A stretch of 64,000 bases of DNA. It comes from Bacteroidota bacterium (lineage in GTDB: Bacteria; Bacteroidota; Bacteroidia; NS11-12g; UBA955). Under the pieces are notes generated by a model that saw only the letters and a program-made list of their open reading frames with translations, did not search any database and was not told where the DNA came from. A program made the translations under genes and the position numbers. Below, one piece after another: positions 7,777-58,224 of the stretch; position 1 is the stretch's first letter, and the number at the start of each line of letters is the position of its first letter. Location of the stretch: contig JAZKEQ010000030.1 in NCBI GenBank assembly GCA_040386935.1, positions 600-64,599 of the forward strand, written 5' to 3'.

Positions 7777-8280
7777 ATGACACTTAAAACAATCAATATA
7801 CATGATAAACCCACCCGCAAGGTGGGTTTTCTGTTAAAGCCACATGGCTACAAAGGCCATATTAAAATGGCAATAGAGGATGATGATTTTTATCCCGAAG
7901 ATTTTTTGCTCGTCAGTGTCAACGACAAATTTGTTCCTTATCGCATCGAAAAATATAATCAGGAAGCCGATATCATTAAATTGAAAAACATCAATTCAAT
8001 TGATGAAGCCACAAGTTTACTTGGTAGAGCAATTCTTGATTTCGTTAGTGATACCCCCGATGATTCACTCGATTATACAGATTATACATTAATAGACAGT
8101 GCTACCGGAACTCAATATGCCATAACAGCTGTTACAGAAATGCCGCAACAGGTATTTCTAGAATTCAGAAATGGTTTTAAAGACAGCATGTTTCCGTTTC
8201 ACCCCGATTTAATAGAAGATGTAGATCACGATAAATTAACCATCACGGTGCATTTTCCTGAAGGCTTACTCGACTTGTAA
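7777..8280 (+). CDS. rimM: 16S rRNA processing protein RimM
   Basis: The motif [17 protein letters not shown] is present, and the gene sits between rpsP and trmD. Confidence 0.85.
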
Positions 8281-8281
8281 C

Positions 8282-8950
8282 ATGAGAATAGACATTATCA
8301 CTGTTCAACCCGGATTACTGGAAAGTCCTTTCGCTCACTCAATGTTGAAAAGGGCGCAGGATAAAGGTTTTGCAAGCATCAATCTCATTAATCTCCGCGA
8401 CTTTGCCATCAATGCCCACGGGCAGGTAGATGATTACCAATACGGTGGTGGTGCAGGCATGGTGATGATGTGCGAACCCATTGCCAATGCCATTGAATCA
8501 CTACAAAAAGAAAGACAATACGATGAGGTGATTTATACTTCGCCTGATGGTGAATTATTAGATCAGCCCATGGCCAATACCTTATCGCTGAAAGAAAATA
8601 TCATTATTCTCTGCGGCCATTACAAAGGCATTGACGATCGCATCCGACAACTGTATATCACCCGCGAAATATCCATTGGCAATTACGTGTTGACCGGTGG
8701 AGAACTGGCTGCTGCTATTATTGCAGACAGTATCGTGCGATTAATTCCCGGTGTATTGGGCAATGAAGAATCAGCCCTTACAGATAGTTTTCAGGACGAT
8801 CTGCTAGCCCCACCTGTATACACCCGACCGGCAGAATTTAAAGGGTTGAAAGTACCTGATGTTTTGCTTTCAGGTAATTTTAAACTCATAGAAGATTGGC
8901 GCGCTCAACAAGCTGAAGAGCGCACCAAACAAAGACGCCCCAACTTATAG
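8282..8950 (+). CDS. trmD: tRNA (guanine37-N1)-methyltransferase
   Basis: TrmD motifs are present ([37 protein letters not shown]). Confidence 0.95.
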
Positions 8951-8985
8951 TTTTTCAAATTCAGCACCCCTAATCAACGACTCCA

Positions 8986-9756
8986 ATGAACCTGCAACTT
9001 ACTAAACCCCTTGTCATTTTTGACCTTGAAACCACCGGTATCAATACTTCTAAAGATCGTATTGTAGAATTGTACATGATTAAAATTATGCCCGATGGTG
9101 CCCGTCACGACATACATCAGCGGTTTAATCCTGAAATGCCAATATCTGCAGAAGCCACTTCAGTTCACGGTATTTCTGATGCCGATGTTGCCAATGAACC
9201 GACCTTTAAACAAAAGGCACATGATCTAAATCAGTTCTTAATGAATTGCGATTTTGCAGGATTTAACAGCAATAAATTTGACTTCCCAATGTTGGTTGAA
9301 GAATTTTTCAGAGTAGGTGTTGAGTTCGATACATTGAAACGCAAATTCATCGATGCACAACGCATTTTCCATTTAATGGAACCAAGAAATCTGTCGGCTG
9401 CTTTTAAATTTTATTGTCAGAAAAATCTTGAAAATGCCCACAGTGCAAAAGCTGATACTGAAGCTACCTGGGAAATTATTCAGGCCCAACTCAACCATTA
9501 CCCAACCCTCGAAAACAATATAGACTTCCTTCACCAATTCAGCGGTCAAAGCAATCTGGTTGACTTAGCCGGTCGTTTGGTATTCAATGAAAAGAAACAG
9601 GCTTGTTTTAATTTCGGTAAGCACAAAGGCAAAACCGTTGCCGAAGTATTGAAAGTAGAACCGAGCTATTACGAGTGGATGATGAACGGAGATTTTCCTG
9701 CCCAAACCAAAAAAGTGCTAACGCAATTGCGCTTAGAAGCAATTACAAGTAAATAA
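8986..9756 (+). CDS. DEDDh 3'-5' exonuclease (DnaQ-like)
   Basis: The Exo I motif FDLETTG and the Exo III motif HSAKADTEAT are both present. Confidence 0.85.
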   Translation: MNLQLTKPLVIFDLETTGINTSKDRIVELYMIKIMPDGARHDIHQRFNPEMPISAEATSVHGISDADVANEPTFKQKAHDLNQFLMNCDFAGFNSNKFDFPMLVEEFFRVGVEFDTLKRKFIDAQRIFHLMEPRNLSAAFKFYCQKNLENAHSAKADTEATWEIIQAQLNHYPTLENNIDFLHQFSGQSNLVDLAGRLVFNEKKQACFNFGKHKGKTVAEVLKVEPSYYEWMMNGDFPAQTKKVLTQLRLEAITSK

Positions 9757-9759
9757 AGC

Positions 9760-10962
9760 TTATAGTTTTTCGTAAACAATCGCCAGTCCCTGACCAACAC
9801 CGATACACATTGTTGCCAATCCGTATTGTAGGTTGCTGCGTTTTTGCATTTCGTGAATCAATGTTGTACTGATACGCGCACCGCTACATCCCAATGGATG
9901 ACCAATGGCGATAGCACCACCATTCACATTCACGATATCGGGATTCAATCCCAACTCGCGCATAGAGGCGATACTCTGACTGGCAAATGCCTCATTCAAT
10001 TCTACCAAGCCTAATTGTTGTACTGTTAAGCCGGCTCTTTTCAAAGCCTTGCGCGATGCTTCAACCGGTCCTATACCCATTATTTGCGGATGTACGCCAC
10101 TGGCTGCACTCGATACCACACGGGCCAAAGGTTGAATGTTATGGGCCTTCACAAAACTTTCTGAAGCCAATGCCAATGCACTTGCACCATCATTCACACC
10201 ACTTGAGTTACCGGCTGTTACGCTGCCATCTTTTTTAAAGGCAGGTTTTAATCCGCCCAATATTTCCATACTGCTCATACGGGGTTGTTCATCTCTGTTA
10301 AACAGCAATGCTTCCCCTTTTTTCTGAGGTATTTGAACGCCTACTATTTCGTTGGCGAATTTATTTTGTTTGTCGGCCTCCTGCCATTTCAATTGCGAGT
10401 TGTAAGCAAATGTATCTTGCTCATCTCTGCTTATTTTCCATTGGTCGGCTACGTTTTCTGCCGTTTCGCCCATGGTATAAGGGTGATATAGTTTTGATAA
10501 AGCAAGGTTGGTAAAACGCCAGCCTATGGTCGTATCGTGAATTTCAGGTGCACGGCCGAAAGCTGTATCAGATTTTGCCATTACAAATGGTGCACGGCTC
10601 ATGCTTTCAACGCCACCTGCTATATATAAGTCGCCATTGCCTTGTGCTATTTCCATGGCTGCATTGGCTACAGCCTGCAGTCCACTGGCGCAAAGGCGAT
10701 TCACTGTATAGCCTGCCACGGTAACCGGCAAGCCTGCTAATAGCAAAGCCATACGCGCTACGTTTCTATTGTCTTCACCGGCCTGATTGGCAGCGCCTAA
10801 TACCACTTCCTCTGTTTGATCAAAGGGCAGGTTGGGGTGGCGGTCCAGTAATCCTTTGATGGCAATAGCAGCCAGATCATCAGGACGAACAGAAGATAGC
10901 GTGCCGGCATATTTGCCTATGGCTGTTCTAACAGCATCGATAACATAAACGGTTTCTTTCAT
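9760..10962 (-). CDS. acetyl-CoA C-acyltransferase (thiolase)
   Basis: It has the active-site context NRLCASGLQAV and the C-terminal motif NGGAIAIGHPLGCSGAR. Confidence 0.9.
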   Translation of the reverse strand: MKETVYVIDAVRTAIGKYAGTLSSVRPDDLAAIAIKGLLDRHPNLPFDQTEEVVLGAANQAGEDNRNVARMALLLAGLPVTVAGYTVNRLCASGLQAVANAAMEIAQGNGDLYIAGGVESMSRAPFVMAKSDTAFGRAPEIHDTTIGWRFTNLALSKLYHPYTMGETAENVADQWKISRDEQDTFAYNSQLKWQEADKQNKFANEIVGVQIPQKKGEALLFNRDEQPRMSSMEILGGLKPAFKKDGSVTAGNSSGVNDGASALALASESFVKAHNIQPLARVVSSAASGVHPQIMGIGPVEASRKALKRAGLTVQQLGLVELNEAFASQSIASMRELGLNPDIVNVNGGAIAIGHPLGCSGARISTTLIHEMQKRSNLQYGLATMCIGVGQGLAIVYEKL

Positions 10963-11112
10963 GGAGCCGCAAAATTACTAAATTGTAAGGTGATACCGCA
11001 TAGGGTTTCTTGATTTGTTTATTGACATTGTCCTTTTAGTTTAAAAAAGTCGGGAAATAAAAAAAGAGCTACCGCAGTAGCCCTTTTTATTGAAAACATG
11101 AATCAACTATTC

Positions 11113-11526
11113 CTATCGGGCGTAATTGTAATTATTTTTTGTAGTACCTGACATGAATTCTGTTTGAAGATTCTTGTCATCGAGTTTCAGAATTTTCCAA
11201 GTGTAAGGAGTCATGACACCTGTTAATGTCACTTTTAATTCATTAGAATCTGTCGTAGTAAATTTATAGGTGCCGATGTCTTTAAATGTGCCACTGATTT
11301 CAGCTCTGAAATTGCCATAGCGATTGAATTCATAACGGCCTGTACCATTGGTGGTTTTTTGCATGCCGTTTTCGAAGGTTTCTTTTAATACCCACACCTG
11401 ATTCAGTAGTTCTTTTTTAGATGGTGGTCTTGTAGATTGAGGAGGGTTTTCTGTTTCTGTTTTTTTACAAGCAGTAAAGGCTGCAAGGGCAGCGACTAAA
11501 ATAAATAGTTTGATGTTGTTTTTCAT
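11113..11526 (-). CDS. small lipoprotein, function unknown
   Basis: It has a signal peptide with a lipobox (LAAFTAC). I recognise no other motif. Confidence 0.5.
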   Translation of the reverse strand: MKNNIKLFILVAALAAFTACKKTETENPPQSTRPPSKKELLNQVWVLKETFENGMQKTTNGTGRYEFNRYGNFRAEISGTFKDIGTYKFTTTDSNELKVTLTGVMTPYTWKILKLDDKNLQTEFMSGTTKNNYNYAR

Positions 11527-11674
11527 TTGAATGATGAGATTTAATGTCTCTATTAAACGATTAATTGATAGCTGAGGTTGCTTGCTAATACGGCGTTATG
11601 AGCCTATTGTTGACCAATGGTAGACAGGTGTTGACGAACGACAGAAAACATAGGATGAATGTAAAGTGTTAAAT

Positions 11675-12379
11675 TTACGAGCGGTTAAATAACAGCGAGT
11701 GAATGTTCGATTTGTAAATACGGCCAACGGGTACTTCACCCATTCCTGAAAGTTTGATTTGATTAGCGGATACAGAGTCTATGAAATCGGTATTCACGAT
11801 ATAGGATTTGTGTACCATGATAAAGCGTTGGGAATCGAGTTGGCGGTAAAAGTTTTTGAGTGTTGAATGCACAGTATGCGAACGACCGTTTTGCAAATGC
11901 ACTTTTACATAATTCTGCATACCTGAAATATAGACCAACTCCGACAGATTGATTTTTTGAAGACGTCCATTAATTTTTATGAGGAAAAAATCTTTTTTAC
12001 CTGAGGCTGCATTGGTCATTATATTGAATTGCTTCAGGGCTTTTTCAGCGCTGTTTTCAAATTGGCTGAGTTGAATAGGTTTCATAAGCGTGTCAAGGGG
12101 TTTAAGTGTATTGTTTGATTTGGATGTCGAAGTTTGTAATAGGACAATAGCAGGTGGGCGACCGGCAGCGTTACGGATAACAGCTAAAGCGGAGAGGCCG
12201 GGAAATTCATCGCTTACAAACAGCACATCAATGCTATTGGTACTCATCAATTCAAGGGCAATTTCAGGGTTGGGCGCATAACCTGAAAAGTAAAGGTAAC
12301 CTACAATTGCAATGAATTCACGAATCTTCTCACCCACCACAGGGTCGTTGTCTGCTACAGCACATTTAATAATTGGCAT
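11675..12379 (-). CDS. LytTR-family response regulator
   Basis: It has a receiver domain (DVLFVSDEFPG, LMKPI) and a C-terminal LytTR domain (ISGMQNYVKVHL...HKSYIVN). I start it at the ATG at 12379. The track start at 12454 adds 25 atypical residues. Confidence 0.8.
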   Translation of the reverse strand: MPIIKCAVADNDPVVGEKIREFIAIVGYLYFSGYAPNPEIALELMSTNSIDVLFVSDEFPGLSALAVIRNAAGRPPAIVLLQTSTSKSNNTLKPLDTLMKPIQLSQFENSAEKALKQFNIMTNAASGKKDFFLIKINGRLQKINLSELVYISGMQNYVKVHLQNGRSHTVHSTLKNFYRQLDSQRFIMVHKSYIVNTDFIDSVSANQIKLSGMGEVPVGRIYKSNIHSLLFNRS

Positions 12380-12652
12380 AAAATAGTATAAGTGTAAAAT
12401 GCACTTCGATTCGAGGCAAAAAAATTTCCGCTCCGGCATTTGGCCGACAGTCATATCTCAATACAAACTGATTGTAGTAGGGTGTTTAAACCTGAACTAG
12501 TGTTAAACGGTAGTTTTTCTTATCAAATGGAAGTTATTTGTCTATTGACAACACGAGTTTTAAAAATGTTGCCTGACAATTAAAGGTTTTTGATGAACGA
12601 CAGGGAAAAGGGGGGAGGGAGAGAGTATTTGTGGTGAGTGGAAATTCACCTA

Positions 12653-12961
12653 TTAAATTTTTATTGATAATTCTAAATGGCCACCAAATCCAAGCTCAAC
12701 AATTTTTTGAAGTGTCGAAATTCGTACTTCTTTAATGTCGTTTTCTATTTTTGAAATATATGACTTTGTTGTACCAACTTTTTCAGCAAGCTGTTCTTGT
12801 GTCATACCCAATTCAATACGGGTATTGTGAATTAAAGCTCCCATTTTGAAATTATCATAACCGGCTTCAAGTTCATCGCGTTTTTTTGAACCACGTTTAC
12901 CATAATTTTTTTCTTTGAAATCTTCAAGAGAGGTTAGATTCTTATTTTTTAATTCGCTCAT
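12653..12961 (-). CDS. XRE-family HTH antitoxin (HigA-like)
   Basis: 102 aa with the HTH segment MTQEQLAEKVGTTKSYISKIEN. It lies 26 nt downstream of the toxin-like gene. Confidence 0.8.
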   Translation of the reverse strand: MSELKNKNLTSLEDFKEKNYGKRGSKKRDELEAGYDNFKMGALIHNTRIELGMTQEQLAEKVGTTKSYISKIENDIKEVRISTLQKIVELGFGGHLELSIKI

Positions 12962-12987
12962 GATTTTTATATTGGTGGTGCTTATTG

Positions 12988-13335
12988 TTATTTTTGAAGT
13001 TCGTATTCTGCCTTTATTCTCAAGGCTAATTCAATTTCTTTTTTAGGGGTCTTTTGTGTTTTCTTTTGAAATCCATTTGCGACTATTATTAATTGTCCAT
13101 GATCAAAAAAGCAGAAAATTCTAAAGATATCACTGCCAATTTGAACCCTTATTTCATAAAGTCCATCAGTGCTTTCAATGTGTTTAAGGTACGTTTCAGG
13201 AACTCTTTGTAAGTCTTCAACCAAGTTTAAAGTCCATATAATTTTTGCTTTAACCTTTTTTGATTGCTTGTCAAAGAAGACTTGAAAATAGTTTTTGAAA
13301 AAAGTAACACTTCTAAACTTCTTGTTTTCAGCCAT
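12988..13335 (-). CDS. type II toxin, Gp49/HigB (RelE/ParE superfamily)-like
   Basis: 115 aa. The pattern LKHIESTDGLYEIRVQIGSDIFRIFCFFDHGQLIIVANGFQKKTQKTPKKEIE is typical of phage-derived Gp49-like killer proteins. The toxin-first gene order also fits. Confidence 0.75.
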   Translation of the reverse strand: MAENKKFRSVTFFKNYFQVFFDKQSKKVKAKIIWTLNLVEDLQRVPETYLKHIESTDGLYEIRVQIGSDIFRIFCFFDHGQLIIVANGFQKKTQKTPKKEIELALRIKAEYELQK

Positions 13336-13370
13336 CTAAATTACAATTATGCAAAGATAAGAAAGTTTCA

Positions 13371-13466
13371 CTAAAGTGCAACTATGAAATTTATTTTTTC
13401 TTCAATGTTTTGCAAATCGGCCAGCTGCTCCCGAATGCGGTTTGCTAAATTATCGTTGTATGCCAT
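13371..13466 (-). pseudogene. truncated TfoX N-terminal-domain-like remnant (31 codons)
   Basis: My translation gives MAYNDNLANRIREQLADLQNIEEKINFIVAL-stop. The first ~23 residues resemble the start of ~110-aa TfoX/Sxy N-domain proteins, and then the frame ends. This rests on my recollection of the family consensus only. Confidence 0.4.
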
Positions 13467-13547
13467 ACAAGTATTTTTAGCGAAGATAAAAACTTGCAGG
13501 TATATAACAAGCAAGTTTCGTGTATTCAGGAGCGTTATCCAACTGTT

Positions 13548-15182
13548 CTACTGATTCAATAATTTAAGTTCTTCTTTGAGTTCTGCCAGGGTCAGTGATC
13601 TAAACTCAACCGGTAGTGTTTTATTTGAGATTGATGTTGACTGAATGTATACAAAAGGCTTACCTTCTTCATATTTAATGGCCACCACCCATGCAGTATC
13701 TCCCCTGGGAACATTTTTGAATACATATTGATTGCCTTCGCGACTTGCAGGTAATATAATGCGCCTGTTTTTGAACACCAGTTTGCAATCTGTGTTGGAT
13801 TCTGCTTTCAAATCAACTTTCAAAGTAGTCAGTTGGTCGTTCATGAATTTTTGAAATACATCAATATTAGCCCAACCCATATTGGTAATATTAAATACAT
13901 AATATCTGTAATCATCATACGACAGTGATTTGTTTAAATACGCTAACTCTACTTTTTGAGTGTTGATTTTTTTTATAGTATCCTGAAGTTCAGCATAGGT
14001 TTTTACATTGTATCGGTCGAGCAGTGGCTTGTTCACCGCATCTATTAAAGCTGTCAAGTTATTCACCCCATAGTCTTTATATAATTTGTCGAGCGCACTA
14101 CATTTATTTCTCATTTCTCTGCTTAATTGACCATTGCTTTGACTGCGACTTCTGAATAATAAGTCATTGATAAAATACCTGATTTCGCAAAAGAATAGTG
14201 GGCATTGACTACCGCCTCCACCACAAAGAAATGATGCACAAATATTTAATTCCTGGAGTGAGAAATTGGCCAATACTGAGTTGTTGTTCACTGTCCAATT
14301 CAAAATATTGTCGTGGCCGGTGCGCTTACCTTGAAAAATTTGCTCATTCCTTTTAACCAGGTTAGTGGGTATCATGGCAATGATGTTTTTTTTATTGTTT
14401 ATTGAATTAATGGATTTGCCGCTTAATTCATTTGCTTCTGTGTATATCATGCCACGGGTTTCAATGATTTTATTGTCAGATGTTGTCGATAAATTGTCCA
14501 ATAGCATATCAGATTTTAAAAATGCTTCCTTTACTGAAAAGCGAATTGTAGATGAAGATGTCCTAAATGAATTGGCTTTTACGTAAACAATTGTACCGCC
14601 TTCACAACGCAATGCCGTATCTCTTTTAGTGTTGATTTTGAATACCTGAGCTCTGCACGACAGTTGGTTATATAGTTCATCAATAGAGGGCAATTCCTTT
14701 GCAATTGGTTTTGCAATAGTAGAGTTGCGAGTAAAAGCAATGGCAATGTCTACCCTTCGGTTTTTTTGTTTGCCTGCATCGGTGGTATTGTCTGCTATGG
14801 GTTTGTCTTCACCAAATGCATTGGTCGTAAATACTTTCGCATTAATGCCTTGGGCTATCAAGTATTGTTGAGCGGCCAGCACCCGTTGTTCCGATAATTG
14901 TTTGTTATAACTGCTGTCGCCAATATTATCGGTATTGCCTTTTATGAAAATTTTATAGGTCGCATAGCTTTTTAAACTGTCGCACTGTTGGTTGAGGGTC
15001 GCTTTGCTATCAGCGGTAAGGTCGAATTTTGCCGACTCGAAATAGATACTTTGTTTAAGCGTATTTTTTTGTCCATAACCTGTTGTATTTAGCAGTAGGA
15101 ACAATGAAAGGAGTAGTGTAAGCCTGTAATAGCAATTGGTACTTTTGCAGTTACAGATTGGGATATTGTAAATCATATCCAT
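13548..15182 (-). CDS. OmpA-domain protein with a large uncharacterised C-terminal region
   Basis: An OmpA-like peptidoglycan-binding module lies near the N-terminus (FESAKFDL...GNTDNIGDSSYNKQLSEQRV...NRRVDIAI). Confidence 0.75.
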   Translation of the reverse strand: MDMIYNIPICNCKSTNCYYRLTLLLSLFLLLNTTGYGQKNTLKQSIYFESAKFDLTADSKATLNQQCDSLKSYATYKIFIKGNTDNIGDSSYNKQLSEQRVLAAQQYLIAQGINAKVFTTNAFGEDKPIADNTTDAGKQKNRRVDIAIAFTRNSTIAKPIAKELPSIDELYNQLSCRAQVFKINTKRDTALRCEGGTIVYVKANSFRTSSSTIRFSVKEAFLKSDMLLDNLSTTSDNKIIETRGMIYTEANELSGKSINSINNKKNIIAMIPTNLVKRNEQIFQGKRTGHDNILNWTVNNNSVLANFSLQELNICASFLCGGGGSQCPLFFCEIRYFINDLLFRSRSQSNGQLSREMRNKCSALDKLYKDYGVNNLTALIDAVNKPLLDRYNVKTYAELQDTIKKINTQKVELAYLNKSLSYDDYRYYVFNITNMGWANIDVFQKFMNDQLTTLKVDLKAESNTDCKLVFKNRRIILPASREGNQYVFKNVPRGDTAWVVAIKYEEGKPFVYIQSTSISNKTLPVEFRSLTLAELKEELKLLNQ

Positions 15183-50330: not shown

Positions 50331-50384
50331 TAGAATAATTGTGAATATAAATAGGGTTAAATGGTTGAATTTAAATTATATAAA

Positions 50385-52880
50385 ATGAAAAATCTATTAA
50401 CTTTATTTCTCCTAATAATTCCTATGAAATCTTTGGATGCACAAACAGTTGTTTCAACTGGGAATGTATCAGGAACGTGGACAAAAACCGGCAGCCCCTA
50501 TAAAGTTACTGGAGAGATAATTGTACAAAAAGGAAGTACACTAACAATCGAACCTGGTGCTGTAGTAGAGTTTCAAGGGGCCTATAGCCTAACAGTAGAT
50601 GGGCAGTTAAAAGCAATTGGCAAAAAGAATGATAGCATTACTTTTAAAGCAAGCCAAAGCATAATTTGGACAGGTATACTTTTTATAAGAAATACACAAA
50701 CAGATACTATTCGCTTTAATTATTGCAGATTTGAAAATGTAGGGCAGCAATGGAAAAGCTATAAAAACACTTTCCCTTATCTATGGCAAAAGAATAATGT
50801 AATGGTGAGTAAGGCTTTATTCTGTGTTTATTCTTCCCCTTTAGTTATTAAAAATTGCAGTTTCTATTTTAATCGACCCAGACTCAATCAAGCTAATCTA
50901 GTGTACGTTTTTGGTAATGTGTTAATTGCGGATAGTTTATACATAACAAGTTCTTCTGATACAATTTCTAGCAGTACTGGCATGATTCAGGTTGATTCAG
51001 CAAAATACTATTCAATAAAAAATATTAAAGCAAATTCCATAAAAGATTTTAATACATTAATTAGGGCTGCAGATTGTAATGGCATAATGAGTAATTTATC
51101 AATTATTGAGAATGTTACAGGAGATAAATGTCTGAAAACTCAATTTGTTGTCATACGCGACTCAGATATTGGAATAGTCAGAAATATTAATCTTTCAAAT
51201 GGTGGCAGGTTTGGCATAATATTGTCAGGAGCTACTAATTATCAAGTGAATAATTGCATTTTCAGAAAAGTATCAAATGCTATAGGGAGTAGTGGAACTT
51301 GTACAGGAAGTATTGTTAGTAATATTTTAATTGAAAAGTGTGGATTGTTTGGTGTCACACAGGCTACTTTTTTTCAAAGTTCTGGGTTACTAATTCGCGA
51401 TTCTAAATTTATTGATAATATCATTGGATTTGCAGTTACTCAGGAATTTGGAAATGGCACACCAATTTTTTTAAATTGCAATTTTCAGGGAAATAATGGA
51501 GCTGGCAGGATTGAGGCTTATCCGGTTTTTATAAATTGTAATTTTCAAGATAATTTTAGTTACAAAACATTACCTGAAGGAAATGGCCCCAATATTCCTT
51601 ATACTTCCGGTATTATAATTACAAGAGAGTTTTATAATTCTCGCCCCTATTTTTATAATTGTCTGTTTTGGGGGAATAAAGATAGTTTCGGACATGGTAA
51701 CAATAATATTATGTATGTAGATAAAATTGTTAAAGGTGATTTTACAAAATGTATTATACAAGGGGATAGTAGCGATGGAATTGTGGGGTATGATGAAAAT
51801 ACTTTTTCAGAGTTTTCTGTTCCTAAAGCCAATCTCACCTATAACAATAGTAACGGTCAAAATCCGGGTTTTATAGATTCAACAACCGGCAATTATCAAC
51901 TCCTCAATACCTGTAATAAAACAGCCTATGCAATCAATAAAGGAATGTCGGGCAATTTACTCATCCAGTATCCCTACAATATCCTCTTGTCTCAGTATGG
52001 AGTCAATATTTACAATACAACAGATTTGCTAGGCAACCCCCGCATAGCTGATGATACCATTGATATTGGTTGTTATGAGAGCATAGGTAATAAGAAAGTA
52101 CTTAAACTTAAAAATACTTATAATGATACGACAGTGTGTTATGGGGCAGGGGCTAATTATAATGTCAAAACAATGGGAGCAGTACAAAGTTACTTATGGC
52201 AACATAAATCAGGTTCAGCAGTCAGTACTGTTGCCTCAGGTTCATCACTCACACTAGTCAATCAGAAAAGCAAAGCCAATCAGTACCGGTTGATGGTTAG
52301 TAATAACGAGTGCTTGCCATTAAAGGATAGTAGCAGATGGTTTACCTTCAATGTCAATAATCCTGTAAAGAAAGGTATTACAAAGAATCCCAATAGAGAC
52401 AGTATCTACCAAAATGAAACGATGCAATTAACTACCAATGCCACAGGATATGCTAGCTTGCTATGGAATACCGGAAGTACAGCTGCAGGTATTAGTTTTT
52501 TAGGGAGCAGTTTGGGAGCCGCAGGTAAGTATAGATTTAGTGTTGAAGGAAGAAAGACAACCGGATGTTTAGAAACGGATACGGTTTACATCATCACTAA
52601 ATCAGGCAATAGCAGTATTCAAACACCTTTTGCAAATTCTCAACTAACGATATATCCTCAACCTGCCACAGATATATTAAATATTTCAGGGTTTGATATA
52701 GAAGGAAAGACTCTTGTCATGCAGATTTACACCCTGGATGGTAAGTTACTCCTCACACAAGGTATCGAAACTAATGAAGTCGAAATAAATACTGCGCATT
52801 TACAACAAGGTATTTATTTAATGACAATTGCAGATCAGAGTACTGGTGAAATGATTGTAGTGAAATGGGTAAAAGGGTAG
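50385..52880 (+). CDS. secreted beta-helix-like protein with a T9SS C-terminal sorting domain
   Basis: It has the signal peptide MKNLLTLFLLIIPMKSLDAQ and repetitive N/G/I-rich segments. The C-terminal LTIYPQPATDILNI...GIYLMTI...VKWVKG is typical of a type A sorting domain. Confidence 0.75.
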   Translation: MKNLLTLFLLIIPMKSLDAQTVVSTGNVSGTWTKTGSPYKVTGEIIVQKGSTLTIEPGAVVEFQGAYSLTVDGQLKAIGKKNDSITFKASQSIIWTGILFIRNTQTDTIRFNYCRFENVGQQWKSYKNTFPYLWQKNNVMVSKALFCVYSSPLVIKNCSFYFNRPRLNQANLVYVFGNVLIADSLYITSSSDTISSSTGMIQVDSAKYYSIKNIKANSIKDFNTLIRAADCNGIMSNLSIIENVTGDKCLKTQFVVIRDSDIGIVRNINLSNGGRFGIILSGATNYQVNNCIFRKVSNAIGSSGTCTGSIVSNILIEKCGLFGVTQATFFQSSGLLIRDSKFIDNIIGFAVTQEFGNGTPIFLNCNFQGNNGAGRIEAYPVFINCNFQDNFSYKTLPEGNGPNIPYTSGIIITREFYNSRPYFYNCLFWGNKDSFGHGNNNIMYVDKIVKGDFTKCIIQGDSSDGIVGYDENTFSEFSVPKANLTYNNSNGQNPGFIDSTTGNYQLLNTCNKTAYAINKGMSGNLLIQYPYNILLSQYGVNIYNTTDLLGNPRIADDTIDIGCYESIGNKKVLKLKNTYNDTTVCYGAGANYNVKTMGAVQSYLWQHKSGSAVSTVASGSSLTLVNQKSKANQYRLMVSNNECLPLKDSSRWFTFNVNNPVKKGITKNPNRDSIYQNETMQLTTNATGYASLLWNTGSTAAGISFLGSSLGAAGKYRFSVEGRKTTGCLETDTVYIITKSGNSSIQTPFANSQLTIYPQPATDILNISGFDIEGKTLVMQIYTLDGKLLLTQGIETNEVEINTAHLQQGIYLMTIADQSTGEMIVVKWVKG

Positions 52881-52994: not shown

Positions 52995-53022
52995 CAAAAA
53001 TAAAAAGGGCCCTTTCGGGCCC
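52995..53022 (-). terminator. Rho-independent terminator for the minus-strand metal locus
   Basis: GGGCCC-TTTC-GGGCCC lies at 53007-53022. The minus strand reads GGGCCCGAAAGGGCCC followed by TTTTTATTTTT. Confidence 0.6.
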
Positions 53023-53091
53023 CCTTCCAGGATCTTCATATTTCGCTGTATGTTGGTCCTTTGGAAGTATCTTTATAATGTCTGTTTTCTA

Positions 53092-53141: not shown

Positions 53142-54200
53142 CTATTCCCTAAACTTAGGATTATTCACAAATTCAAAATCGGTTAATGTATTAAGGAAAG
53201 CAATAATGTCCTGCACATCCATTGGATTCATGCGACCTTTTTGAGAGTTACCCAAATTAGGGTCGATGTTTTCAGCGTATTTAAAACCAATGTTGTAGTG
53301 CTGTATGCATTCTTCCAGTGTTTTAAATCTGCCATCGTGCATGTAGGGTGCTGTTAAGGCAATGTTGCGCAATGATGGAGTTTTAAATTTACCATCGTCA
53401 TTGTTGTTAAGTGTAATTAAACTGCGACCCTTGTCAACAGGAATACTGTCGAGGCCGGTGTTGCGGTATTCAAAATCGCTGAAGGTGCTGCCAATGACAT
53501 GGCAATGCCCACAGTCGCCTTTATTGATGTCAGTATACCATTGCAAACCTCTTTGTTCCTGAGGAGTAAAACTTGCTAATCCTTGTTTCACGCGATCGTA
53601 TTTGCTGTTGCCTGAAATTAAAGTGCGTTCGAATTGTGCAATGGCTTTCATCACCATTGGTGTTGTAATTTTATCGCCACCAAATACTTTCTTGAACAAT
53701 GCAGGATAATCTGCGTGTGCATTCAATTCACTCAGGGCATTTGTCAAACTCTCGTGCATTTCTACCGGATTTTGTATGGGTCCAATTACTTGTGATTCAA
53801 GATTAGCCGCACCACCATCCCAAAAGAATTGTTTCTGATAACCCAGATTTACAATCGGCATAGCATTGCGTGTGCCGGGCAGTTTATCGATGCCTATACT
53901 GAATTGAATGGTGCTGTCTGAAAACGAAAAGTTAGCTTTATGACATGAGCCACATGATTGCGTATTGTCGCCTGATAAAATAGGGTCATAAAACAATTGT
54001 TTACCCAATGCCACACCCTCAACAGTCATAGGATTGTCGGCAGGTATTACCATTGGTGGCAAGCCCGGAGGTATTACCAGTTCATAAGGTGTCAGTCCTT
54101 CTTCTGTTTTCAGGTCGTTGTCTTTCGCACAGCCAATAAAAATTATAATGGCACTTATGCATGCCATGATATACAATAATAACTGCTTCATATCTGACAA
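53142..54200 (-). CDS. di-heme cytochrome c peroxidase family protein (MbnH/MauG-like)
   Basis: It has two CxxCH motifs (CGSCH, CGHCH) and a signal/lipoprotein N-terminus. It lies 3 nt downstream of the MbnP-like gene. Confidence 0.85.
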   Translation of the reverse strand: MSDMKQLLLYIMACISAIIIFIGCAKDNDLKTEEGLTPYELVIPPGLPPMVIPADNPMTVEGVALGKQLFYDPILSGDNTQSCGSCHKANFSFSDSTIQFSIGIDKLPGTRNAMPIVNLGYQKQFFWDGGAANLESQVIGPIQNPVEMHESLTNALSELNAHADYPALFKKVFGGDKITTPMVMKAIAQFERTLISGNSKYDRVKQGLASFTPQEQRGLQWYTDINKGDCGHCHVIGSTFSDFEYRNTGLDSIPVDKGRSLITLNNNDDGKFKTPSLRNIALTAPYMHDGRFKTLEECIQHYNIGFKYAENIDPNLGNSQKGRMNPMDVQDIIAFLNTLTDFEFVNNPKFRE

Positions 54201-54203
54201 GTA

Positions 54204-54971
54204 TTACTGGATTTTGTCAAATATAAAAGCATCAGAAAAACTCAGCTTCAAATTGTCAATCCATGCAAAATCAGCACTGCTGCTCGACTGGCGGTTGTTG
54301 TCTACATTAAAATCAACATTAGTAGGCGTAGTGTATAAATTATTGAGGTTGAATTTTAAATGCAATTGTTTGGCAACGCCTTCAACTTTCAGTGAAGTAG
54401 TTAATGGTAACTCAACATCAGTTAGGGCTCTGTCAGTTGCAAAGTGAAAAGTCATTGATTTGGTAACACCTGAAGTATTTTTGTATTTGCCTTCGTGTTT
54501 GAAGAATACATAACCGGTGTTCCAGTCCCATATCATGCCCATTACCGGATCTAAGTCACCGTCTTGCGCACCATTGTGGTTGCGGTCGTAAGGTAAGCCA
54601 ACTTTAAATTTAATTTTTGTATAAGTGCCGTTTGGAACTTTTAACGCATCAACTTTGCAGGTACTGATATCGGCTGCGTTGATTAAATCGTAGTTGTCGA
54701 GTTTCAATTCTGTGTTGTCGTCTTTTACCAGTATCACATTGGTGATGTAGTATTTCAATAGGTCAACCTGATAGTTGTTGCCGGCAGCATTGGTGTATTG
54801 CATTTTGCCCAATTCAAGTGGCATGCCATCTACTTGATTGTTAAAAAGAATGCTAACATCAGCAGATGTTTCTGTATTGGTTGTAGCCGGTGGTGTTACT
54901 TCTTTGTCTTTGCAGGCAACAAGCATTACCATGGCAGTAAATGCCATTAAAGTTTGTTTGATTATTTTCAT
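54204..54971 (-). CDS. MbnP-family periplasmic protein (putative copper-binding partner of MbnH)
   Basis: It has the lipobox LVAC. FNNQVDGMPLELGKMQYTNAAGNNYQVDLLKYYITNVIL and MIWDWNTGYVFFKHEG match my recollection of the MbnP family. It pairs with a di-heme peroxidase. Confidence 0.7.
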   Translation of the reverse strand: MKIIKQTLMAFTAMVMLVACKDKEVTPPATTNTETSADVSILFNNQVDGMPLELGKMQYTNAAGNNYQVDLLKYYITNVILVKDDNTELKLDNYDLINAADISTCKVDALKVPNGTYTKIKFKVGLPYDRNHNGAQDGDLDPVMGMIWDWNTGYVFFKHEGKYKNTSGVTKSMTFHFATDRALTDVELPLTTSLKVEGVAKQLHLKFNLNNLYTTPTNVDFNVDNNRQSSSSADFAWIDNLKLSFSDAFIFDKIQ

Positions 54972-54992
54972 TTAATATATTGTAAAGGGTGT

Positions 54993-55037
54993 AAATAAAA
55001 AGTACGGATTCCCCACATTTATGAGGAGAATCCGTAC
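54993..55037 (-). terminator. Rho-independent terminator directly after the Cys-rich mini-protein gene
   Basis: GTACGGATTC (55002-55011) and GAATCCGTAC (55028-55037) form a perfect 10-bp inverted repeat. The minus strand continues TTTTTATTT. Confidence 0.6.
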
Positions 55038-55051
55038 AATTGTAAGATTAA

Positions 55052-55246
55052 TTATTTGCAGCAAGTGCAACCGCAATCGCAATTGTCGCCTGAGCAAGAA
55101 TTGTCGCAAGTACAAGCAGTTTCACATTTGTCAGTGCCGCAGCATGAGCCGTTGCATTTTGAAGATGAAGAACTGTTGATAGCGTAAAGTGCACCTGAAG
55201 TAGCAAGGACGGCTATAGAAGCCAATAAAATTATTTTCTTTTTCAT
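55052..55246 (-). CDS. secreted Cys-rich mini-protein (64 aa; 12 Cys in the last 35 residues)
   Basis: I start it at MKKKIILLASIAVLATSGALYA (ATG at 55246). The mature part is INSSSSSKCNGSCCGTDKCETACTCDNSCSGDNCDCGCTCCK. The longer track ORF adds a non-signal leader. Confidence 0.6.
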   Translation of the reverse strand: MKKKIILLASIAVLATSGALYAINSSSSSKCNGSCCGTDKCETACTCDNSCSGDNCDCGCTCCK

Positions 55247-55375
55247 GATATTTTTTGTTGTTAAAATTTGATTTTTGTGTTCAACATTTGAGCCTGTTGA
55301 GGGGCGTGTGTTTTCATAGTTCCGTTCACGGAATGAATTCATAAATAAATGGAATCACTTATTTACTACACGAAA

Positions 55376-55777
55376 TCAAATTTGCAGGACGCGTTTCTTC
55401 AACAAAATGGGGACGGGAAGCTCCCTCTGGTCGAAAGTATTGAAAGCCAAAACATCATCAACAGAATAGTTGAAAACGCTAGGCTGAATGAGATCGAATT
55501 TAATAGGTGCTTTTACTTGTTGTTTAGCAGAAAAAGCAATTGTTTTTTGTAAACCCAAAATAGGGTTAATCACTGTGCTAATAGATGAGGTATGGCAGCA
55601 TGAAGATTTATTTGGAATCTTTACACAGGCGCAGCACTCATCACTTACCTGAACACCGTTGTCTTTTAAACTAAGGCCTACACCTGAAAATACATCGCAG
55701 CACGTAGATACTTCTATCTTAATTCCGCTACCTGTGAGCAGAAAAATAACAGATAATATAATGGCTTTGATTTTCAT
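55376..55777 (-). CDS. secreted or membrane-anchored protein with three Cys-Cys motifs
   Basis: It has a signal/anchor segment and then STCCDVF, DECCACV and SSCCHT. It lies 16 nt downstream of the CDF gene. Confidence 0.55.
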   Translation of the reverse strand: MKIKAIILSVIFLLTGSGIKIEVSTCCDVFSGVGLSLKDNGVQVSDECCACVKIPNKSSCCHTSSISTVINPILGLQKTIAFSAKQQVKAPIKFDLIQPSVFNYSVDDVLAFNTFDQRELPVPILLKKRVLQI

Positions 55778-55793
55778 GGCACCAAATACAAAG

Positions 55794-56747
55794 TTAGTGA
55801 TTTTCTTCTGATTTGCAATTTTTGAACTCCATTTCTAATGTAGCATGATGAATATTAAGGGCATATAAATATTTCTTGAGCCTATCCTTTACTGCATCTG
55901 ATTGTTCTGAATTCATATTGTCTTTCATTAGTACATGGGCTGTTAATGCATTGCTGTTGCTGCTGATGGGCCATATATGGATGTGGTGAATGTCCACAAT
56001 ATTATCATCAATGGATTGTAATGCTTTGATATCTTTCATACTGATGTTTTCAGGCACCCCATCGAGGAACAAGCGCAATGTTGATTTTAAAAATCGCCAG
56101 GTGGACAGTAATAGAAATGCCATTACTAATAAGCTCACCAATGGGTCGAGCCAGTACATGCCGGTGTAATGCATGGCAATACCGGCCACAACAACACCTG
56201 CAGATATCAATGCATCGGCCAGTAAATGCAAATAAGCGCCTCTTACATTCACATCGTTTTTATTTTCTCTCATGAATAACCAGGCACTGAAACCATTGAT
56301 GAGTATCCCAATAAATGCGACCTTCGATACAGTAAATCCTTCGACAGCATGTGGATCCATTAAGCGAGTAATGGCAGAATAGCCAATACCGCCAACAGCG
56401 ATTGAAAGAATGATGGCATTCACCATGCCGGCCAGCACTGTGGCTTTGCTGAATCCGTAAGTAAAACGTTCGGTCGGTTTTACTTCTGCCAGTTTAAAAG
56501 CCAGCACAGATATCAGTAAACCTCCTACATCGCTGAGATTATGACCTGCATCAGATAGCAAGGCCAATGAATCAGTCATTAAACCCGCAACAGTTTCTAC
56601 AATTACAAAGCCGGCATTAAGTACAATACCTATAATAAAGGCACGGGTAATATTTTTTGATTGCAGTTGCCCATGACCGTGATGGTGGTGATGATCATGA
56701 GAATGATGATGGTCGTGCGAATGTTCGTGAATCATTACTTCAAACAT
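55794..56747 (-). CDS. cation diffusion facilitator (CzcD/ZitB-like) with a His-rich N-terminus
   Basis: It has HEHSHDHHHSHDHHHHHGHG, six TM helices, SDAGHNLSD and HLLADA motifs, and a C-terminal cytoplasmic domain. Confidence 0.9.
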   Translation of the reverse strand: MFEVMIHEHSHDHHHSHDHHHHHGHGQLQSKNITRAFIIGIVLNAGFVIVETVAGLMTDSLALLSDAGHNLSDVGGLLISVLAFKLAEVKPTERFTYGFSKATVLAGMVNAIILSIAVGGIGYSAITRLMDPHAVEGFTVSKVAFIGILINGFSAWLFMRENKNDVNVRGAYLHLLADALISAGVVVAGIAMHYTGMYWLDPLVSLLVMAFLLLSTWRFLKSTLRLFLDGVPENISMKDIKALQSIDDNIVDIHHIHIWPISSNSNALTAHVLMKDNMNSEQSDAVKDRLKKYLYALNIHHATLEMEFKNCKSEENH

Positions 56748-56794
56748 ACATTATTTTTTTTCAACTAAATTTGCATTCAATTGTTCTATAAGAA

Positions 56795-57664
56795 ATGAGT
56801 ACAGAAGTTAGGGTTGGAGGTGTTCCCGAACATTTTAATCTGCCGTGGAAACTGGCAAATGAATACGGGCTTTTTGAAAAAGATGATATTAATTTTCAAT
56901 GGCAGTTTTACAGTGCTGGCACCGGTGCTATGGTAAAAGCATTGGCTGACGATGAACTGGATATGGCAGTGTTGCTCACTGAAGGTGCTGTGTCGGCTAT
57001 TATTAAAGGATTAAAAGCGCGCATTGTTAAACAATACATTGCATCACCTTTGATATGGGGCATTCATACAGGTTGTGATTCGGGATTGGAAAATATCGGA
57101 CAATGCGAAGGAAAAAAATATGCCATCAGTCGCTTCGGTAGCGGCAGTCATTTAATGGCCATGATAGATGCAGAAATACGTGGCAAAAAAATTGAAGAAT
57201 CGGATTTTGTATTAATTGAAAATATGCAGGGCGCTTTACCTTCTTTGCAGAACAATCAGTCTCAGGTTTTTTTCTGGGAAAAGTATACCACCAAGCCACT
57301 GGTTGATAAAGGCATGTTGGAACGCATCGGTGAGTTTATAACACCGTGGAGTTGTTTTCAAATTGTGGCCACTGAAAAAGCATTGGCGACTAAACGCGGA
57401 GCCATTGAAAAAATATTGGCTTCTATGAATTTTATCTGCAAACAATTTATGAGGGCAGATAACAGCATCGATATGGTATTGGAACATTTTGAAATGAAAC
57501 CTGAAGATGCTCACTCATGGTTTTACAGTACAGAGTGGAATACGGATTATCACATCAGCGAAAAAATGCTGGAGAATGTGATGTATTCGCTAAAAAAAAT
57601 CGGCAATATCAGCAGTGAAGTGAAACCTGAAGTATTGGTTGACGAAGTGGTTGAGCTGGTTTAA
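56795..57664 (+). CDS. NMT1/THI5-like substrate-binding-fold protein (no signal peptide)
   Basis: VRVGGVPEHFNLPW...GTGAMVKAL resembles the periplasmic-binding-protein type 2 fold of NMT1/THI5-like proteins. The assignment is weak. Confidence 0.5.
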   Translation: MSTEVRVGGVPEHFNLPWKLANEYGLFEKDDINFQWQFYSAGTGAMVKALADDELDMAVLLTEGAVSAIIKGLKARIVKQYIASPLIWGIHTGCDSGLENIGQCEGKKYAISRFGSGSHLMAMIDAEIRGKKIEESDFVLIENMQGALPSLQNNQSQVFFWEKYTTKPLVDKGMLERIGEFITPWSCFQIVATEKALATKRGAIEKILASMNFICKQFMRADNSIDMVLEHFEMKPEDAHSWFYSTEWNTDYHISEKMLENVMYSLKKIGNISSEVKPEVLVDEVVELV

Positions 57665-58179
57665 GACTGCGCCTGTCTTTTCTTAGGCGATATCAAACTG
57701 TCTGCAGGGTATTGGGCTTTCATGCTGTCGCGTATTTCACGGGTCCAGTTGATGAGGGCTGATTTTTGCGTTTCATCTAAAATGGCATCTCTGTGAATAA
57801 TGGTATAAGATGACAATGGCATTTCATTCTCAGTAATTACCTCTTCAATTTCTTCCAGTTTGTGGTATTGACGGTATAAGCGGTAACTTGTAAACTCATT
57901 GAAATTTAATTCATGTTTGCCTTCATCAATGTGATTGGCTAACCAACCCGCAACAGGTTGTATTTGGGAGTACCAAGGGTATTTAGTGGTATTGCTGTGG
58001 CAATCATTGCAAGCAGTTGCCAAAATAGTTTTGACATTATCCGGCATTGGCCATTGCTTCGTAATATCGTTTGTAACATTACCGGAATTATTTTTATCAG
58101 GTCTTATGAATTGTATCAATACAAGTAAAACCAGCAATATTTTACCTGTAAGTTTAAGGATTTTTTTTAATTTGGACAT
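57661..58179 (-). CDS. heme-binding-domain protein (membrane-anchored)
   Basis: CNDCHSNTTKYPWYSQIQPVAGWLANHIDEGKHELNFNEF carries a CxxCH motif typical of the putative haem-binding domain family. The start is the ATG at 58179. Confidence 0.7.
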   Translation of the reverse strand: MSKLKKILKLTGKILLVLLVLIQFIRPDKNNSGNVTNDITKQWPMPDNVKTILATACNDCHSNTTKYPWYSQIQPVAGWLANHIDEGKHELNFNEFTSYRLYRQYHKLEEIEEVITENEMPLSSYTIIHRDAILDETQKSALINWTREIRDSMKAQYPADSLISPKKRQAQS

Positions 58180-58224
58180 GGTCCAAAAATACAAGATTTA
58201 TTTGAATGTCAAATTAATGTAATA

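Follow-up and report, generated by a model that had tools for sequence, protein, structure and literature searches.

A composite metal locus in a Bacteroidota genome: a putative nascent-chain sensor, a hidden Cys-rich peptide, an MbnP-MbnH pair and a CDF exporter

Our subject is a group of five co-oriented genes on the minus strand of a 64,000-nucleotide stretch of a Bacteroidota bacterium (contig JAZKEQ010000030.1 of assembly GCA_040386935.1, positions 600 to 64,599; below, the window is this whole stretch). In the direction of transcription they encode a cation diffusion facilitator (CDF) exporter, a 133-aa protein that we call the leader, a 64-aa Cys-rich precursor that we call CysR, an MbnP-family lipoprotein and a di-heme lipoprotein of the MbnH/MauG type. 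We favour, with a little better than even confidence, the view that this locus is a composite of three modules of unequal evolutionary depth, in which the leader acts in the manner of CutF and CruR. What deserves attention is the pairing of a probable nascent-chain metal sensor with a hidden secreted Cys-rich peptide, together with the recurrent coupling of the sensor's family to MbnP and MbnH (together MbnPH), and not the CDF exporter. An initial annotation, made from the sequence alone, had joined the five genes in one envelope metal-buffering or trafficking system. All five open reading frames (ORFs) that it called are present, its general idea of an envelope metal locus is supported and its MbnPH pair is real; the five-gene combination, on the other hand, is not conserved. 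The window belongs to a 3.4-Mb metagenome-assembled genome (MAG) that is 98% complete, and its named relatives are all uncultured freshwater Bacteroidota MAGs. Identifiers such as L005, L006 and L029 denote the related stretches with which the window locus was compared.

In the model we favour, the first module is the leader and CysR, which would be transcribed from a -7 box just upstream of the leader and ended by the terminator of CysR. The 133-aa protein would not be structural; like CutF and CruR, it would sense metal while being exported co-translationally: its periplasm-exposed Cys pairs would bind a soft metal, most likely Cu, metal binding would alter ribosome pausing at the C-terminal VPILLKKRVLQI-UGA motif, and pausing on the leader would set the expression of the gene or genes downstream. 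CysR would leave by the Sec pathway as a 42-aa peptide, unmodified and with 12 Cys, and would serve in the periplasm as a metal buffer or carrier. The second module is the mbnP-mbnH pair, which is probably expressed by read-through since it lies behind the CysR terminator and has no canonical promoter of its own; by homology, MbnH would oxidise a Trp of the MbnP WxW motif to kynurenine, giving a periplasmic copper site. The third module is the ZitB-like CDF exporter, placed upstream only in a small subclade, whose transcription would run on into the leader unit.

The leader and the Cys-rich peptide behind it

The leader gene (55376-55777, minus strand) begins with a hydrophobic N-terminus, MKIKAIILSVIFLLTGSG, which is a putative signal peptide, carries CC pairs at residues 26-27, 48-49 and 60-61, and after a variable linker ends in the conserved C-terminus VPILLKKRVLQI and a TGA stop codon. 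C26, C60 and C61 are invariant, and C27, C48 and C49 are conserved. Against NF047658 the window protein scores 21.6 bits, under the cut-off of 28, and its homologues score 30-79 bits (30.1 for the genus homologue in L029, 34-79 for related members); a precomputed PF26622 (DUF8199) annotation covers both the protein and its homologues. On these matches we count it as a probable member of the HYC_CC_PP/DUF8199 family, neither name of which was met in the literature searched. A search for DUF8199 with a narrow alignment matched only MAGs of the same genus. What the initial annotation had called a secreted Cys-motif protein thus has a probable place in a catalogued family, and it resembles a regulatory leader of the CutF/CruR type more than a structural buffer of metal.

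This resemblance begins with the way conservation is spread along the protein. The most conserved segment of the leader is its C-terminal motif, [VI]P[IV]L[LI]xKRVLQI (3.3 bits), in which the Pro stands exactly 10 residues before the stop in 16 of 17 clusters formed at no more than 50% identity, and the codons that encode this segment vary synonymously among loci. The spacing from the CC pairs to the Pro is held at 58-65 residues, even though it spans the least conserved segment of the leader (1.2-1.6 bits). A C-terminus fixed in this way, behind a linker that keeps its length and is free in its sequence, is typical of arrest peptides, whereas a folded chaperone would rarely show it. The stop codon is TGA in 16/17 loci compared with 12% genome-wide, and C exceeds G in the 3' 150 nt of the leader in 16-17 of 18 loci, compared with 27-34% of coding windows. 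An AlphaFold2 (AF2) model of the protein is unfolded, with a mean predicted local distance difference test score (pLDDT) of 48.5, and the gene always lies on the same strand as, and immediately upstream of, the genes it accompanies.

CutF of Rhodobacter capsulatus (cutFOG) and CruR of Bordetella pertussis (bp2923) are exported copper-sensing upstream ORFs of the DUF2946 type. The published description of CutF-like proteins asks for a length below 150 aa, a signal peptide, a motif of Cys/His and a PP motif at the C-terminus; their genes lie upstream of CusC/A/B/F, TonB-like or PCuAC genes, and after normalisation 40% of the proteins come from Bacteroidota (PMC9973294). In CruR the CXXC and RAPP motifs keep a conserved distance, with a sequence-tolerant C>G linker between them; the protein is predicted to be unstructured, and its gene is followed by an intergenic region of 162 nt (PMC9426467). 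The leader shares much of this architecture: it is under 150 aa, with an export signal at its N-terminus and a Cys metal motif; its Pro-containing C-terminal motif is conserved and lies beside basic residues; the sensor-to-motif spacing is kept across an unstructured linker with C>G; and it closely precedes metal-homeostasis genes of the same strand, with members of its family adjoining CusA/CzcA pumps and TonB receptors. The distance from leader to CysR, 129 nt in the window and 129-190 nt across 17 loci, agrees with the CutF-like description and brackets the 162 nt of CruR. There are also clear differences. Where CutF and CruR have RAPP or PPP and a CxxC or CxxxC motif, the leader has three CC pairs and its [VI]P[IV]L[LI]xKRVLQI-TGA end, whose lone invariant Pro stands 10 residues before the terminus. 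The published filter looks for PP in the last 15 residues (PMC9973294), and the window protein has P121-V-P123 instead; PP or PPP is present in leader-family members of a sister family and in L071 and L076. The gene that follows the leader directly encodes a Cys-rich peptide, which falls outside the neighbour classes listed in PMC9973294.

That gene, CysR (55052-55246, minus strand), is a 64-aa ORF nested in a listed 96-aa ORF. It encodes a putative Sec-type signal peptide and a 42-aa mature part that, in the alignment, has 12 invariant Cys and not one hydrophobic or aromatic residue. The ratio of non-synonymous to synonymous substitution (dN/dS) in the Cys domain, 0.01-0.28, marks strong purifying selection; between the window and L006 there are 10 synonymous changes and 1 non-synonymous change in 35 codons. 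We judge both of the exported Cys-rich proteins of the initial annotation to be real. CysR follows the leader directly in 17/17 genus loci, and more broadly is found beside it wherever positions could be compared. A six-frame profile search located it, always in single copy, in 30 of the 191 genomes of the order, which represent 3 of its 28 genera. In a word-index search of a collection of 5.8 billion proteins the sole match was the window's own copy. The family is essentially absent from protein databases because public gene calls leave its site empty or call the opposite strand, as happens in L006, L074 and L077. At L006:5064-5312 (minus strand), L074:4578-5001 and L077:4588-5001 these calls show either a spurious opposite-strand ORF over CysR or a gap of ~415 nt. 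Longer variants of 115-122 aa, in which the same signal peptide precedes two or three Cys-rich repeats, occur in L034, L035, L038 and L039.

No Pfam or NCBIfam family, those of metallothioneins included, matched CysR. With the bacterial metallothioneins SmtA and BmtA and the exported copper storage protein Csp1 it nevertheless shares a Cys content of ~29%, CxC/CC/CxxxC spacing, small size and a lack of aromatic residues. Known bacterial metallothioneins are cytosolic, whereas CysR carries a putative signal peptide, and Csp1 is a folded four-helix bundle; CysR has no sequence match to any of them. The simplest reading is that CysR is an unmodified, exported, metallothionein-like peptide, which would bind metal through its Cys.

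The MbnP-MbnH pair and its settings

The profile checks on the last two genes bore out their identities. The MbnP-family protein (54204-54971, minus strand) matches PF20243 with 137.3 bits (E 7.5e-40, cut-off 27) and scores 51.9 bits against the NCBIfam equivalog TIGR04052 (MbnP_like_WxW), below its cut-off of 140; it represents a divergent Bacteroidota subfamily. Its relation to the solved MbnP structure, 7L6G, was settled by a fold search where sequence search had failed. A sequence search of the PDB found nothing, a profile of 10 sequences came no closer to 7L6G than E 0.13, and a deeper but narrower profile lost it. The AF2 model, built on 51 homologues with a pLDDT of 92.3, matched in Foldseek the six chains of 7L6G alone (E 1.5e-8 to 6.7e-7, probability 1.0, TM-score 0.49-0.54), with the next match at E 0.04. 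The copper site of 7L6G is formed by a His, a Met, a water and a kynurenine derived from the WxW Trp (PMC11951088). In the window protein W148-D-W150 (the WxW motif), M146 and H176 are invariant in 51 sequences, H132 is nearly so and N131-H132 is kept; the pattern 'NH...GMxWxW' aligns with its counterparts in 7L6G, and the residues that neighbour the WxW motif are candidate ligand-type residues. The lipobox is LVAC, with Cys20.

The mbnH gene (53142-54200, minus strand) starts 4 nt after the mbnP stop. Its product matches PF03150 (E 1.9e-58) with two CxxCH motifs, CGSCH and CGHCH, and has a lipobox, FIGC, that makes it a predicted lipoprotein. TIGR04039 is its best-scoring NCBIfam model at 241.2 bits, under the cut-off of 362.85, and its best PDB match is the di-heme enzyme 6E1C (E 1.3e-46), which we take to be the MbnH of Methylosinus trichosporium. 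Compared with the MbnP and MbnH of strain OB3b of that species (7L6G and 6E1C), the window pair is likewise adjacent; its MbnP, whose fold matches only 7L6G, keeps the WxW and NH motifs as well as the Met two residues ahead of WxW, and its MbnH shares the two CxxCH motifs and has 6E1C as nearest solved relative. It differs in sequence (MbnP has ~14% identity to 7L6G, and both NCBIfam equivalog scores are under their cut-offs), in that both proteins are lipoproteins, and in its setting: the pair stands behind a leader-CysR unit, in a genome without a methanobactin operon or an adjacent TonB receptor. As the initial annotation had said, no TonB receptor, CopA/C/D or regulator lies within ~5 kb of the window locus.

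In this order MbnPH is not a rare marker. PF20243 MbnP is present in 61/61 relatives, and with 1-5 copies in each of these genomes the pair is commonplace; it seems to belong to the order's core features. A second MbnP-MbnH pair stands on another contig of the window's own genome (G000 contig C16, L005:7967-11740, minus strand), directly downstream of, and overlapping, the gene for an M1 aminopeptidase sorted by the type IX secretion system (T9SS), with no leader, CysR or CDF gene. Two unrelated Bacteroidota contigs have a solo MbnP gene without MbnH after a DUF4159 gene (L070:7001-7753 and L072:7001-7744).

Within the genus, MbnP-MbnH comes next after leader-CysR in 11/17 loci. Beyond it, HYC_CC_PP members adjoin CusA/CzcA pumps of the resistance-nodulation-division (RND) type in L040 and L042, and in a sister family (L041, L043 and L044) HYC_CC_PP heads a cluster of TonB receptor, HMA/MauE, MbnP, MbnH and HMA genes. 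In its L043 form (8011-13714) this cluster consists of HYC_CC_PP, a TonB receptor (CarbopepD_reg_2 + Plug), an HMA+MauE fusion, MbnP, MbnH and an HMA lipoprotein, and within 10 kb L044 has MbnPH pairs and HYC_CC_PP genes, two of each. DUF8199 lies directly before MbnP-MbnH in L071 and L076, with an AraC regulator and a P1B-ATPase nearby, inside a multicopper-oxidase island in L069, and ahead of a hidden CysR in L074 and L077. With pumps, TonB-HMA clusters, a P1B-ATPase and a multicopper oxidase as its contexts, the tie of the leader family to MbnPH is wide and copper-flavoured. For the MbnPH part, the TonB receptor, HMA proteins, P1B-ATPase and multicopper oxidase that adjoin leader-MbnPH in relatives point to copper. 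For the metal that the leader would sense, this context likewise favours Cu, with Zn and Cd as alternatives.

Transcription signals and the CDF exporter

Our picture of transcription is drawn from motifs. A sigma-70 promoter scan was dropped, as its 14 hits compared with 13.3 expected amount to chance, and the Bacteroidota -7 motif was scanned for instead as TAnnTTTG, with a background of 83 hits per 128 kb. The leader retains its own box, TAACTTTG (55789-55796, minus strand), which shares bases with the CDF stop codon and precedes the leader ATG by 19 nt. Of 18 genus-type loci with sequence, 17 have an exact TAnnTTTG no more than 20 nt ahead of the leader start and the 18th has one mismatch; the box is 14-19 nt before the start in 14 loci, and three more are equivalent once the correct start codon is chosen. 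The 129-nt region between leader and CysR (55247-55375) has no such box in 16/17 loci, which is chance level, and between CysR and mbnP it is absent in 11/11. Behind CysR is an intrinsic terminator (55002-55037, with its U-run continuing to ~54993; -23 kcal/mol, z -5.26), and a strong hairpin with a U-run follows the CysR stop in 17/17 loci, with stem sequences that are unrelated. Both this terminator and the leader's -7 box are additions to the initial annotation, which had placed a terminator near 53000; that one is a hairpin behind mbnH (53002-53027, minus strand) with an 11-bp stem, 6 GC pairs and a T-run.

It is likely that one promoter drives leader and CysR and that the strong terminator ends most of the transcripts. 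The start of mbnP lies 30-45 nt past the CysR terminator in the 11 loci, and mbnPH likely relies on read-through or on a non-canonical promoter. A further exact box, TATATTTG (54218-54225, minus strand), falls within the 3' end of mbnP and precedes the start of mbnH by 25 nt; it has a TTTG 23 nt upstream and could be an internal promoter for mbnH. The intergenic region between leader and CysR is moderately structured in the window (fold z = -2.76) and ends in an A-rich tract, and the alignment to L006 shows a conserved hairpin ~10 nt after the leader stop. An Rfam scan of the locus gave no match.

The CDF exporter (55794-56747, minus strand) proved to be of the ZitB/CzcD type with the His-rich N-terminus that had been expected. 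In the profile searches it matches PF01545 (E 1.4e-40) and PF16916, passes TIGR01297 (237.5 bits, cut-off 82.35) and has ZitB as its best equivalog, at 210.8 bits under a cut-off of 408. Its translation keeps the HD-HD transport-site quartet (GHNLSD in transmembrane helix 2, LHLLAD in transmembrane helix 5), which predicts a site of the Zn/Cd/Co type. It thus shares with ZitB/CzcD-type exporters their fold families, transport site and His-rich N-terminus, and differs from them in its score under the ZitB cut-off and in the overlap of its stop codon with the promoter of a leader unit that is probably of the copper type. The divergent region upstream of it is 47 bp and contains a -7 box, TATGTTTG (56741-56748, minus strand), that overlaps the first ATG of the CDF ORF; a second ATG, at 56735, lies 5 nt past the box and gives a protein that begins MIHEHSHD. 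This second ATG may be the true start, with a protein 4 residues shorter, and this arrangement of the box and the two ATGs suggests an mRNA that is leaderless or nearly so. From its own promoter the CDF transcript likely reads into the leader unit; only 16 nt, with no terminator, separate the CDF stop from the leader start.

How deep the association of this exporter with the rest of the locus goes can be read from its distribution. A ZitB-like CDF is present in 6/33 genomes of the genus, and where it shares a contig with the leader it lies 11-17 nt upstream of it (5/5 loci). The other 27 genomes have no match at 1e-20 and keep the leader-CysR(-MbnPH) module, and no CDF was found in 9/9 annotated neighbourhoods of the same MbnP subfamily in other lineages. 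In other species of the genus the place of the CDF before the same downstream module is taken by a CBS/Omp85-POTRA pair, which in the window genome sits on a separate contig. Given this restriction to a few genomes of the genus and its absence from the wider neighbourhoods, the CDF linkage is a shallow, subclade-specific juxtaposition, and the exporter is a recent neighbour outside the conserved system. The locus is flanked by a gene for a Haem_bd (PF14376) protein (57661-58194, minus strand) and one for an 839-aa T9SS-sorted beta-helix protein (50361-52880, plus strand). A Haem_bd-PBP-HutH-HisRS synteny is kept in the subclade, and no connection between it and the metal genes was found.

Competing readings and what the locus may mean

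It is unlikely, in our judgement, that all five genes form one co-regulated envelope system for metal buffering or trafficking, with the CDF feeding metal to the periplasmic Cys-rich proteins and MbnP. Such a system would agree with the tight, co-oriented spacing, the lack of a terminator between the CDF and leader genes and an arrangement kept in five loci of the subclade, and since neither CysR nor mbnP has a canonical promoter before it, a single transcript over all the genes is possible in principle. The neighbourhood survey says otherwise, and the leader's own -7 box, the strong terminator that splits CysR from mbnP and a Zn/Cd/Co-type transport site set against the copper-type partner genes of relatives all speak for separate units. 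That same terminator would fit the opposite reading, to which we give even less credence, that leader-CysR stands next to mbnPH by chance as two unrelated modules: 6/17 genus loci have leader-CysR without MbnPH downstream, and MbnPH is found alone or in other contexts (L005, L073 and L075). Coincidence is hard to square, however, with a leader family tied to MbnPH in at least three architectures across families, and with mbnP starting so close behind the terminator, without a -7 box, at every one of the 11 loci. The least probable of the alternatives, to the point of being very improbable, is that CysR is a bufferin-type precursor (Buf2, 6/12-Cys). Bufferins are Sec-exported copper chelators of the class of peptides that are made by ribosomes and modified after translation (RiPPs), whose Cys are enzymatically turned into metal-binding heterocycles. 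CysR resembles them as a small precursor with 12 conserved Cys and a likely role in periplasmic metal buffering, and the Sec-type signal peptide and conserved Cys of Buf_6/12Cys precursors (PMC11626156) fit it well. We rejected it as a bufferin because no relative has the modifying enzyme: MNIO (PF05114) was found neither in the window genome nor in any of its 61 relatives, and the same search detected it in the Caulobacter positive control. Buf2 precursors without MNIO occur in 0 of 864 genomes (PMC12452194). Neither MNIO, DUF2063 nor DoxX genes lie near CysR, and no bufferin family is among its matches, as it has none.

The most serious rival takes the leader for a stable protein of the CusF or CzcI kind, either membrane-anchored or periplasmic, that works as a metallochaperone or regulator and passes metal to CysR, MbnP or the pumps. 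We regard this as rather improbable, if a good deal less so than the readings above. The signal peptide and conserved Cys pairs suit it, as does the position of family members beside CusA/CzcA pumps, where proteins of the CusF and CzcI type occur; CzcI has itself been counted among the CutF-like proteins although it has no Pro motif (PMC9973294), and the window protein has no strict PP. It explains less well why the extreme C-terminus should be the most conserved part and keep a constant distance of 10 residues from TGA, a rare stop, why a linker of 60 residues should keep its length and not its sequence, why the model has no fold, and why the gene should always stand immediately upstream on the same strand with CysR lacking a promoter. 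Several points weigh against our own reading. The 133-aa protein has no detectable similarity to DUF2946 (no Pfam match at E <= 10, in a Pfam set without PF26622), so its likeness to CutF is architectural and not a shown homology; it also carries PVP where the published filter asks for PP. For these two reasons we say that it probably works like CutF and CruR and do not claim it as a member of their family. Its AF2 alignment is just 22 sequences deep, the stop-codon and C>G statistics are drawn from related, non-independent loci, and a stable metallochaperone that takes its fold only when it binds metal would be an equally good reading of an exported protein that is short, disordered and rich in Cys. 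The intergenic regions behind the leader are only moderately structured (z +0.3 to -5.0 among loci), and no single conserved RNA switch structure was identified in them. Since the periplasm is oxidising, CysR, a Cys-only peptide, might end up with disulfides instead of bound metal.

A bolder form of the composite model can be stated, which we hold only tentatively and consider doubtful as a whole. In it CysR would open, as first member, an unrecognised family of metallothionein-like peptides that are Sec-exported and not modified by enzymes, and its synthesis would be gated in cis by a nascent-chain metal sensor with a new, non-polyproline arrest motif ([VI]P[IV]L[LI]xKRVLQI + UGA). MbnPH would be expressed by read-through of the CysR terminator, and together these would make up a periplasmic circuit for the buffering and trafficking of copper, specific to Bacteroidota.

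Little is understood of what the widespread MbnP/MbnH pairs do physiologically outside methanobactin operons. One order of the Bacteroidota has them universally, and in it they lie repeatedly behind a small gene with the hallmarks of a sensor like CutF and CruR. The CDF link, as a shallow rearrangement, should not be taken as a new Zn/Cu system. If the sensor reading of that small gene holds, two recently discovered copper systems would become linked, nascent-chain metal sensing would extend to a family with no similarity to DUF2946 and with a different arrest motif, and a family of secreted 12-Cys peptides, wholly missed by annotation pipelines, would be revealed.

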